This document shows positions 30,825 to 33,410 of a stretch of DNA of 64,000 bases, one piece after another. Position 1 is the first letter of the stretch. Each line of letters begins with the position of its first letter. The DNA comes from Candidatus Poribacteria bacterium (lineage in GTDB: Bacteria; Poribacteria; WGA-4E; WGA-3G). The notes below the pieces were generated by a model, which did no database searches, was not told the origin of the DNA, and saw only the letters and a list, made by a program, of their open reading frames with translations. The position numbers and the translations under genes are program-made. The stretch is taken from positions 4,096,001-4,160,000 of the forward strand of contig OZ243938.1 in the NCBI GenBank assembly GCA_965214095.1, in the 5' to 3' direction.

Positions 30825-32129
30825 TCAATTCCGAATACCCGCTCGAATTGTCATTACTGGCCAACCTTTAAGCTCCCAACCATCAAATGGGGTGTTTCTA
30901 CTCTTTGAACACGATTTGTCTACTTCATACTTTGCTGTTTTTCCTGAATCAATAAGTGTGACATCTGCAATCGCACCGATGGAGAGTGTCCCACGATCAA
31001 TCCCTACTATCTCAGCGGGAATACATGTCAACTTAGCAACGGCTTCTTTCAATGTTAGATGTCCAGCTTCAACCAAATAGGTCAGTGTAAGTGGTACACA
31101 CGTCTCAAGACCAATTATGCCATTAGGCGCATCAACCATCCCAAGTGCTTTTTCTGACGGTGTATGCGGTGCGTGATCTGTTGCAATCGCATCTATAGTA
31201 CCATCACATAATCCTTCAATTACTGCGTCAATATCCCTCTGCGTCCTCAATGGAGGATGCATTTTGGCGTTTGTTCCCTGTTTTTCTACCTCTGTATCCG
31301 TGAGAATCCAATGATGCGGACACACTTCAGATGTCACGTTGACACCTCTTTCTTTTCCCCACCGTACTAAATCAACCGCTCCTGCTGTGCTAACATGTAA
31401 AATATGCACATGCCCCCCTGTCAATTCTGCCAGCATGATGTCACGTGCAACAATAATATCCTCCGCAGCGTTCGGACTTCCAATTAGATCCAACCTCTGC
31501 GATGTTTCACCCAGATTCATCACTGCACCCGCATTAATGTTATGTTCTTCACAGTGTACCATAACAGGAAAATCAAGTTCCGCACTCAAACGTAATGCTT
31601 CACACATTAACGCAGAGTTCATAACTGTAACACCGTCATCACTGACACCCACTGCTCCTGCCGAAAGCATTCCGCGTATATCTGTCAGCTCTTCTCCTGC
31701 AAGGCTTTGTGTAATACTTCCTACAGGAAAAACATTTGCTGATGTCCTACTGTTATCATCAGAATCCCGACCCGCAATCGCATAAATGTGTCTAATCTTT
31801 TCTGGTGAATCGTTCACTGGTGATGTATTTGCCATACATACAACAGAAGTAAATCCTCCTGCTGATGCTGCTGATGTCCCTGACGCTATCGTCTCCTTAT
31901 GTTCATATCCAGGTTCACGAAGATGAACGTGCATATCAATTAACCCAGGCGTAACGATCAAATCAGTCGCATCAATCACATCACCAACATCTTGCTCAAG
32001 AATTCCACCTACCTGAGCAATCTTACCATCAATTATCAGCACATCACCAACTTCATCAATATTATTCGCAGGATCAATGATATGACCATTACGTATCAGC
32101 ACATTGTCAATCTTTTCCGTGTTATTCAT
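30825..32129 (-). CDS. pyrC: Dihydroorotase
   Basis: [33 protein letters not shown]; ATG at 32129. Confidence 0.95.
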
Positions 32130-33394
32130 CAAAGTTTCAGGCAGGAGACCCGCTGCTTTAGCACGGGGAGGAATGCCCGTTCCTATCTATATTGAAAGTT
32201 AAGTTTAGTTAACACCTTGAAATCTCTTTGTTTTGCACTTGTAGTTAACCGTTTCCCATCAAGACTATAGATTGAAAACAATCCTTTTGCGTTGACACCT
32301 ACTAATCTTGTCAATCCATATTTGATATGCTTGACAAGTGTGTTCTTGACCAATCCTTCTTTTAGCAATGTGCCACCATATCGTGAACGGATACCCCCTT
32401 TTTTCGGTTGTTCTCTGTGTAAATTGCGTCTTTCTATCGGTATGGGTGATATACAGAATATATCTGTCGTATCTGGTATGCTATCACCGCCGACAGTATG
32501 ATAAGCAAGACACCAACTATCCACACAATGTGCGTCAAAGGTTTCTGTTAACTTCTGTTTAGACTTTTTCAACCCAAGTCTATCACGGATTTCCTTTGTT
32601 TCCCAACCTTGAAGTGTTAGCAGGTGCCAACGCTTCTTGATATTCTGATAGAACCACTGCTTACCAACTTCCAATGGACCAAAAGATTGATTCCATTTTT
32701 TGGCACGTTTGATAGTCCGTGCTTTGATGTCTTCTACACATACATGACTAATAGGGTAGAGTTTAGATAACCAATCCAGTATCCTTAACTTCCAATCCCA
32801 TCTCGCACGCGTACCAGCAGGTATACGTTTTCTGTTAGCAAGTTTGTTTGTCCTATTCTTGCGATTAGGACACTTCCGTGAACGTCTACTTCTGCGAAGT
32901 TCTCTACGTTTTTCAACCTTTTTACCAACCTTGTTATGTGCATCTGCCTGAACATTCAAATAAGTGTGTTTCTCTGATTTCACAGTGAAACCTTCTTTCT
33001 TACTACCAGGATCCACACCAACTACTATGTCTTGGAGTTCAGTGTCTGATGGATCAACATTAAGTCGGACGCAAAATGTGCAATTATTCCAAAAGGGTGT
33101 CGCTTTTCCTGTTTGTATCCAACGCCTCGCCCGTGAGGGCTTCGTAGGCATGAGAGGGTGTTGATTTTTGTCTACTACTGGAACTAAGATGTGTAAACCT
33201 CCGAAGAGTATATATTGCCCCATCCAGATCAGGTATTCGTAGAGGGATCAGACTTGGGGAGCATCCGAAACATACATTGGACTGCCACGTTCAGAATACC
33301 CGATATTTTACTGTAGTCAAGACTTAATCTTGTGGAGTGAACGCTTGGCATGCGTTTCGCACAAGCACCGAAGCTTTAGCTCGGTGTCACTGAC
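32130..33394 (-). mobile_element. IS200/IS605-family OMEGA element (omega-RNA + isrB), no tnpA
   Basis: Left end starts GTCA (33394) with hairpin CACCGAGCTAAAGCTTCGGTG; right-end hairpin CCCCGTGCTAAAGCAGCGGG (32149-32168); 3' flank ATGA; removal rebuilds the pyrR/pyrC overlap. Confidence 0.85.
32183..33223 (-). CDS. isrB: IsrB RNA-guided nickase (RRXRR/PLMP domain, split RuvC, no HNH)
   Basis: PLMP motif, RuvC-I GVDPGS, Arg-rich bridge helix RRELRRSRRSR, RuvC-II VEDI, RuvC-III HCVDS; 346 aa, no HNH. Confidence 0.9.
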   Translation of the reverse strand: MGQYILFGGLHILVPVVDKNQHPLMPTKPSRARRWIQTGKATPFWNNCTFCVRLNVDPSDTELQDIVVGVDPGSKKEGFTVKSEKHTYLNVQADAHNKVGKKVEKRRELRRSRRSRKCPNRKNRTNKLANRKRIPAGTRARWDWKLRILDWLSKLYPISHVCVEDIKARTIKRAKKWNQSFGPLEVGKQWFYQNIKKRWHLLTLQGWETKEIRDRLGLKKSKQKLTETFDAHCVDSWCLAYHTVGGDSIPDTTDIFCISPIPIERRNLHREQPKKGGIRSRYGGTLLKEGLVKNTLVKHIKYGLTRLVGVNAKGLFSIYSLDGKRLTTSAKQRDFKVLTKLNFQYR

Positions 33395-33410
33395 TCTGTT
33401 TCCACTTCAC
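33195..33410 (-). ncRNA. Putative omega-RNA (guide from pyrR 3' end + scaffold)
   Basis: About 200-nt structured region upstream of isrB; GTCA...TGAC pairing, CTAAAG hairpin, GGATGCTCCCCAAGTC...CCCTCT; boundaries approximate. Confidence 0.7.

Follow-up and report, generated by a model that had tools for sequence, protein, structure and literature searches.

A 64,000-nucleotide stretch of a Candidatus Poribacteria genome (contig OZ243938.1 of assembly GCA_965214095.1, positions 4,096,001 to 4,160,000; the window, from genome G000) carries a transposon between pyrR and pyrC. The transposon is confirmed, at the level of sequence, as an IsrB (ISC1)-type element of the class called OMEGA (short for obligate mobile element-guided activity), and the locus as a whole is very probably explained by a trans-mobilised ISC1 element that inserted 5' of the ATGA in which the pyrR stop and pyrC start codons overlapped. 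Among related genomes, about half of the clade's elements sit immediately before host start codons. The regularity that emerges is a host start codon formed by the ATG or GTG of the target-adjacent motif (TAM), whether a gene ends there or not, and this start-codon count matters more than the pyr locus itself. The locus stands as a natural example, with its empty allele, of an OMEGA transposon inside an operon without gene breakage, and it shows the sequence that the predicted guide RNA would carry.

Insertion at the pyrR/pyrC junction

On the minus strand the genes run pyrR, 1,265-bp insert, pyrC, carA and carB, and the element shares the orientation of the pyr operon. The features of the insertion, in window coordinates, are listed below.

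32130..33394, minus strand: whole element, non-autonomous ISC1/IS605-type, 1,265 bp; limits set by five genomic copies and the empty allele of G021
33376..33939, minus strand: pyrR (PF00156); its C-terminal end is now element-encoded
30825..32129, minus strand: pyrC, dihydroorotase (PF01979, PF12890); carA and carB lie downstream on the same strand
32126..32129, minus strand: ATGA target/TAM; the pyrC start codon, with the TGA part being the ancestral pyrR stop
33395..33414, minus strand: predicted guide portion of the omega RNA, formed by the final ~16-20 nt of pyrR beyond the element and placed by known architecture
33188..33394, minus strand: omega-RNA scaffold, containing the first hairpin with its CTAAAG loop (right-end (RE)-type transposon end)
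32183..33223, minus strand: isrB open reading frame (ORF), 346 aa from the ATG at 33223
32130..32185, minus strand: TAM-proximal, left-end (LE)-type end, with the isrB stop TAG in TAGGAA, a nested hairpin and the 8-nt tail AAACTTTG

Read on the minus strand, the element begins at base 33394 with GTCAGTGAC (also given as GTCAGTGACACCGAGCTAAAGC) and closes at base 32130 with CTGAAACTTTG (also given as CCTGCCTGAAACTTTG), after which host sequence resumes from 32129 downwards as ATGAATAAC. The 3' end of pyrR is now GAA GTG GAA ACA GA|G TCA GTG ACA CCG AGC TAA, where the bar marks the insertion joint. PyrR is thereby extended by SVTPS from the element, its TAA stop now lying in the first hairpin loop of the element, and pyrC retains its ATG in the ATGA that directly follows the element. 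An earlier note made from the sequence alone had described both of these effects correctly.

The same note had placed the insertion exactly at an ATGA stop/start overlap, and comparison with orthologous operons recovers the joint that it predicted. A PyrR query against 40 relatives led to 29 pyrR-pyrC loci that we inspected, of which 28 were readable (L036 was misregistered and dropped). G021, the closest sister species (PyrR 97% identical), carries an empty allele reading GGAAACAGAATGAATAAC / GTGAACTGGAAACAGAATGAATAACATAGAAAAG / GTGAACTGGAAACAGAATGAATAACATAGAAAAGATTGACAATGTG. Fusing the element's two flanks in the window around a single ATGA gives precisely this joint, in which the TGA stop of pyrR overlaps the in-frame ATG of pyrC. 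Because the joint holds a single ATGA, the motif belongs to the host target and nothing was duplicated; filled (G000) and empty (G021) sites each have one ATGA, without target-site duplication. G005 and G001 likewise carry ACAGAATGA. The ATG of G005 is in frame with pyrC within the ATGA overlap, and that of G001 runs into a stop after four codons, with pyrC beginning further down.

Across the relatives, pyrC directly follows pyrR in 28 of 29 loci, the exception being G003, and in 26 of the 28 readable ones the genes either abut or have a spacer of 15-40 nt between them (the others are G001 and G003). More distant members of the genus have a 15-40-nt spacer with AGGAGG and a pyrC start at ATGGAGAGTGTG. 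Where these relatives have the ATG of that start, the window has ATT, which leaves the ATG of the ATGA as the sole in-frame ATG upstream and the best candidate for the pyrC start.

The sequencing runs included two RNA rows with 6-7% of words, and runs X1, X5, X6 and X8 were compared with the window. Contigs from X1 span both element junctions with 0 differences; X1 is possibly the sample of origin and is not independent support. A joint of 32082 to 33605 (side 30) in run X5 was not counted as an empty allele because it misses the element ends.

As a separate observation, the pyrR-pyrC junction of G003 (L022) holds a different, protein-less element of ~580 bp between the spacer AGGAG and the pyrC ATG. 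It occupies ~2068-2645 of the reverse complement, has hairpins with CTAAAG loops and ends GAAATCTG before ATAA, and represents a second, independent insertion into this junction.

IsrB and its structured RNA

The isrB product is a PLMP/RuvC protein of 335-346 aa without an HNH domain. Its sole Pfam match is RRXRR (PF14239, E 9.2e-34), it contains an HPLMP motif, and its best match in the PDB is IsrB 8DMB (E 1.5e-33), aligned over residues 3-278. The RuvC D, E and H..D motifs align with 8DMB, and D60, E153, H221 and D224 are invariant in an alignment of eight relatives (A1). The frame is open in all five G000 copies. Together with a covarying RNA upstream, the single Pfam domain and the match to 8DMB uphold the original assignment to the IsrB-type OMEGA elements.

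The ~205 nt at the 5' end form a conserved, structured omega RNA that begins at the transposon end, lies upstream of the isrB start and overlaps it, as judged from compensatory changes in 19 of 30 predicted pairs across 27 diverse sequences (alignment A2). The region gives a full-length, weak match to the Rfam family HEARO (RF02033) that starts at element base 1 and scores 20.2 bits (E 0.14) against a gathering score of 83; it is not counted as a HEARO member, and a window-wide Rfam search at gathering thresholds returned no matches.

At the 3' end, an outer stem CGGGCA/TGCCTG (32179-32174 / 32143-32138) encloses an inner hairpin with a CTAAAG loop, and 7-10 nt separate the foot of the hairpin from the target. 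Folding this end alone as a single sequence gave no significant signal (centroid fold, z -0.36). The hairpin is common to 10-12 other loci and to the families of miniature inverted-repeat transposable elements (MITEs) described below, with compensatory stem changes; its support thus comes from stems that covary between families and not from single-sequence folding. In copies of the G003/G020 type (for example, L064 and L073), the isrB frame passes its usual stop, continues through the outer stem and stops in the loop of the terminal hairpin, at the TAA within CTAAAG.

Relatives of the element elsewhere in G000

G000 (5.25 Mb) contains five full IsrB copies, the other four lying at G000:C1 near 172940, 1932360, 2599998 and 4219951. 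The pyr copy is 92.6-92.9% identical to these four, which are 98.8-99.7% identical among themselves. All five begin GTCA after unrelated upstream flanks, and ATGA follows four of the five.

The element has no Y1 transposase gene of its own, as an autonomous IS200/IS605 element would have. No tnpA was found in or beside any of the five copies, and five PF01797 matches lie elsewhere in the genome. Four intact tnpA-tnpB elements of the IS605 type (1,826 bp, 98% alike; L051-L054) reside at 81.6 kb, 2170 kb, 2385.6 kb and 4230 kb and bear the same CTAAAG-loop hairpins in inverse orientation. One tnpA-tnpB element, T2, has its left end replaced, and the fifth tnpA is partial (2666075-2666299).

Two MITE families accompany these elements. 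Family A (335 bp, five copies, for example 915518-915852) has the same type of terminal hairpin and a GTGA target. Family B (406 bp, four full copies) has an ATGA target, an omega-RNA-like 5' end and no ORF; its full copies are listed below.

781029-781434, G000:C1: MITE family B copy
959174-959579, G000:C1: MITE family B copy
3279134-3279539, G000:C1: MITE family B copy
5082162-5082566, G000:C1: MITE family B copy

Each of the four full family B copies directly adjoins the ATG of a long ORF and follows a Shine-Dalgarno (SD) sequence. For family A, none or one of the five copies lies at a start codon, the one being doubtful. Several single loci in G000 also close with an IsrB-type terminal hairpin.

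Insertion sites at host start codons

We rebuilt the empty site of every element for which both ends could be placed and pooled 110 unique IsrB sites from related Poribacteria genomes, with duplicates recognised by the opening 25 nt of the 3' flank and removed. The duplicates or orthologous sites removed numbered 2 in one set and 20 in another, plus the pair L140=L142. A set of 80 related loci came from Candidatus or uncultured Poribacteria metagenome-assembled genomes, save one titled "uncultured bacterium"; L069 (no 3' end) and L071 (C-terminus missing) were dropped, 19 of the 80 loci fell outside the AT[GA]-anchored pattern and were parsed separately, and 2 loci without a recognisable TAM were kept in the denominator. 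A site was called start-like by the loose criterion if its TAM opened an ORF of at least 100 codons, and by the strict criterion if there was also an in-frame stop no more than 15 codons upstream.

At 55 of the 110 unique sites, an ORF of at least 100 codons begins with the NTG of the TAM. Sites divided by TAM as follows.

ATGA (subfamily 1): 84 sites, 43 start-like
ATGG (subfamily 2): 11 sites, 8 start-like
GTGA (third group): 7 sites, 4 start-like
ATAG (fourth group): 5 sites, 0 start-like
ATAA: 1 site, 0 start-like
No TAM: 2 sites

An SD-like tetramer stood at -4 to -17 of the 5' flank at 35 of 49 start-like sites and at 4 of 46 others (Fisher 2.7e-10). Under the loose criterion 41 of 80 sites were start-like against a null of 13.9%, and under the strict criterion 24 of 80 against 3.05% (P ~1e-15 or lower for both), with a null of 18.5% when restricted to ATGA sites outside ORFs (binomial P <=1e-13 over all three); the nulls derive from G000 ATGA sites with crude ORF calls and were applied to other genomes and to ATGG and GTGA sites.

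The same placement recurs in G000, where six of eight ATGA-flanked elements (two IsrB copies and four of MITE family B) lie at the ATG of ORFs of 253-996 codons. The 5' flanks of these start-like sites hold an SD (AAGGAG, GGAGG, AGGAG or AGAGG) at a distance of 5-8 nt upstream. A further IsrB copy in G000 lies between a TAA stop and the next ATG. Among the genes behind elements in the clade are rpmJ and rpsJ, the latter present as a single copy in G003. The rpsJ site supplies a second empty/filled pair, with the empty site aaggaagcatgagATGAAAAAT in G020 and the filled one in G003, across a boundary that is ambiguous by 1 nt (G).

The earlier note had further suggested that ATGA overlaps may be safe harbours for these elements, to be tested by tabulating flanks. 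The tabulation gave no enrichment at overlaps and turned up the placement at start codons instead. Exact ATGA stop/start overlaps account for 4 of 86 sites in relatives (~5%), plus the pyr copy, in a count from a unified parser that could not handle 22 loci (all five in G000 and the greater part of subfamily 2 among them). At three more sites the stop abuts the ATG or overlaps it by one base. Among 54,872 ATGA sites in G000 there are ~1,673 start-like ones and 170 overlaps; usage of overlaps is thus close to their share among ATGA start codons, making them a special case and not the rule.

Alternative explanations

The start-codon bias might reflect not survival but a targeting preference of the transposition machinery, through an extended A-rich target or access to single-stranded DNA. 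A-rich bases do follow the TAM (ATGAAAA, ATGAGAA, ATGAACA), the G003 MITE with an ATAA-type end also lies between an SD and the pyrC ATG, and insertion between SD and ATG would be expected to be harmful. However, A-rich second codons are usual at gene starts, so that the two explanations are inseparable here. In addition, target choice of the IS608 type rests on 4-nt pairing, and ATAG-type elements lie on stop codons instead (two of three examined, L078 and L081), with none of the five ATAG sites being start-like. We consider targeting preference unlikely, while granting it a real chance of being correct.

Also to be weighed is an element ancestral at pyrR/pyrC that was lost by precise excision in G021 and others. 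Excision in the IS200/IS605 family is precise, and the pyr copy differs by 7% from the other four, themselves 99% alike. Against this history, the element is present in none of the 29 relatives' pyrR-pyrC loci, G021 has no IsrB match anywhere in its genome, and the ATGA overlap is confined, among the 29 loci examined, to the small clade of G000, G021 and G005, with G001 partial. We regard ancestral presence as improbable; gain in the G000 lineage appears to be the most economical reading of these sequences.

Chance placement, in which only an ATGA is needed and gene boundaries are not preferred, has very little probability left to it. There are ~55,000 ATGA sites in G000, IsrB_4 is 17 nt short of a stop codon and IsrB_5 35 nt short of a start codon, and MITE family A is at start codons in 0-1 of 5 cases. 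Sites at ORF starts nevertheless make up 55 of 110 in relatives and 6 of 8 ATGA-flanked ones in G000, against nulls of 3.05, 13.9 and 18.5%, and the SD motifs in the 5' flanks mark them as true starts.

Domestication of the pyr copy, with IsrB and its omega RNA regulating the pyr operon as a TldR-like RNA-guided transcription factor, would fit a host operon with an attenuator-like leader and an ATC at the canonical isrB start, but is scarcely credible given two intact transposon ends, four sister copies at unrelated loci, conserved RuvC motifs and a guide that in G000 would match only its own occupied site.

A proposed model for insertion and tolerance

Under our preferred explanation, insertion of a trans-mobilised ISC1 element at the pyrR/pyrC overlap, a Y1 transposase acting in trans would place the single-stranded element immediately 5' of ATGA, without duplication. 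With a scaffold supplied by the transposon end and a guide situated just beyond it, the RNA has to be transcribed from the host side, in this case by the pyr operon; the resulting omega RNA would carry the final ~16-20 nt of pyrR as its 5' guide. IsrB with this RNA would recognise the vacated joint, through the guide match and the ATGA TAM, and would nick it, so that an excised element would tend to be restored. As to the predicted transcription of the guide from the flank, the element is co-oriented with the pyr operon, a consensus scan found no terminator-like site inside it, and no RNA contig in X8 bridges the junction. The flank-derived guide and NTGA TAM put forward in the earlier note agree with Meers 2023 and Hirano 2022, and the N|ATGA target of ISC1 elements is given in Kapitonov 2016; guide use and nicking at this locus are predicted steps.

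The pyr site is tolerated because neither ORF is broken. More generally, a site would have to pass three filters: a TAM must be present, no gene may be broken and sense transcription must arrive from outside, the last of these being known as an orientation bias from Meers 2023. In G000, ~63% of ORFs of at least 120 codons (2,590 of 4,084) start with ATGA or ATGG at their first ATG, making the start codon the commonest site that passes all three. A TAM that itself begins with a start codon (ATGA, ATGG, GTGA) would thereby place about half of the clade's elements before host starts.

In this position the element puts 1.26 kb between a host SD and the ATG that belongs to it, essential genes included, so the element end must allow initiation. 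Two routes can be envisaged. An AGGA(G/A) at the 5' foot of the terminal hairpin could serve as the SD, with folding bringing AGGAG within 7-10 nt of the ATG. Alternatively, ribosomes ending isrB at the foot or loop of the hairpin, 30-55 nt before the ATG, could restart at the host ATG. Either route, if true, would explain how rpsJ, rpmJ and pyrC tolerate a 1.26-kb insert before their ATG. Tentatively, and with rather more doubt than conviction, we suggest that IsrB elements and omega-RNA MITEs of this clade are specialised for the position between ribosome-binding site and start codon, with a TAM that is "start codon + purine", a guide taken from the host 5' untranslated region and an end that acts as a portable translation-initiation region.

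Besides the crude nulls, several observations weigh against our preferred explanation of the locus. One of the five G000 copies is followed by AGGA, not ATGA. The resident tnpA elements differ in their stem sequences and have GTGA-type flanks, so trans-mobilisation is unproven. A GTG two codons past the ATT is a possible alternative start for pyrC. Relatives start isrB at an ATG (M-F/Y-V-P-V) after AAGGAG or GGAGG; in all five G000 copies this ATG is replaced by ATC (33190 in the window). An in-frame ATG (33223) lies 11 codons upstream of the ATC, within the conserved RNA, and is open only in the G000 lineage, as relatives have a TGA between this position and the usual isrB start. IsrB may therefore be poorly translated, or begun at the upstream in-frame ATG. 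RNA contigs of run X8 cover 33440-33700 and scraps of the element and bridge no junction, and were not read as evidence on expression. To these are added the HEARO score below gathering and the 1-nt ambiguity in the comparison of G020 and G003 at rpsJ.

If the TAM is in effect a start codon, the recurrence of ATGA, ATGG and GTGA as IsrB/ISC targets would be explained, the known orientation bias of IscB elements would be sharpened to an exact position, and the transposon end would be predicted to support translation of the gene behind it. For annotation, a gene should not be taken as dead because an IsrB element immediately precedes its ATG.

Comparison with known systems

The element type, the ATGA target, the TAM and the flank-derived guide are already in print; the pyr copy is a fresh member with a particularly clean empty allele. 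For ISC1/IsrB elements, published features are a 5'-GTCA terminus and N|ATGA as the target, and ISC and IS605 pairs share an end with opposite gene orientation (Kapitonov 2016, PMC4810608). The closest parallel there is ISC1-1_MA, likewise non-autonomous, with an HNH-less IscB1 (=IsrB) only, a GTCA end, subterminal hairpins and insertion 5' of ATGA without duplication, shown by empty sites. Unlike ISC1-1_MA, whose host is a cyanobacterium, the present element belongs to Poribacteria, and ATGG, GTGA and ATAG subfamilies coexist in its clade.

IsrB orthologues are nickases with NTGA/TTGA and ATGG TAMs; DtIsrB was assayed with a 20-nt guide, and DtIsrB and five orthologues nicked the non-target strand next to the TAM (Hirano 2022, PMC9581776). 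The targets derived here for the clade (ATGA, ATGG, GTGA and ATAG groups) are in keeping with those measured TAMs. Like DtIsrB (8DMB), the protein described here has a PLMP-RuvC-TI architecture, no HNH and an NTGA TAM, and the ATGG of other orthologues compares with our subfamily 2. It differs from DtIsrB in its distant sequence, in a span from scaffold to start codon of ~205 nt against a 284-nt omega RNA, and in being known from sequence alone.

For IscB elements, Meers 2023 (10.1101/2023.03.14.532601) places the guide outside the boundary and 5' of the scaffold, with transcription from outside, and reports an orientation bias matching the upstream gene. GstIscB/ISGst, for which a restorative-homing model exists, shares the RE-derived scaffold, the guide outside the boundary and TnpA in trans; it differs in having HNH and cutting both strands, and what is reported for it is orientation bias, not start-codon placement. 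IS608 and ISDra2 resemble the present element in their Y1 chemistry, single-strand peel-and-paste transposition, subterminal hairpins and a 4-5-nt target at LE without duplication, but their guide RNA lies at the 3' end and is transcribed from within the element. Their targets are TTAC and TTGAT.

In the openly available literature we found no paper linking ISC or IS605 targets to start codons. In the main text of Kapitonov 2016 (PMC4810608), the terms "start codon", "stop codon" and "intergenic" have 0 occurrences. IS605 hairpins have been linked to the 3' ends of Borrelia lipoprotein genes (Delihas 2009), which is a different matter.

Additional features and hairpin families

Two further features lie upstream of pyrR, both from the consensus scan only.

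34015..34038, minus strand: terminator-like 10-bp hairpin with a T-run
34298-34269, minus strand: promoter-like site

The hairpin at 34015-34038 may be a pyr attenuator of the PyrR type; Rfam returned no family matching it.

In G003, IsrB copies at L095 and L102 are followed by ATGAAGGGAATTA..GACAATCCCACTGCTTTAGCTGTGGG and are nested insertions in another hairpin-bearing repeat. G000 itself contains a further hairpin family that ends GCAACGTTTG before GTAA, the reverse complement of TTAC (for example, at 789369, 1997639, 2248528 and 3916784), and another that ends GAAGATATG before ATAA (414625, 491819, 1009398 and 2317033). With GTAA and ATAA as targets of these families, several target specificities coexist in G000.

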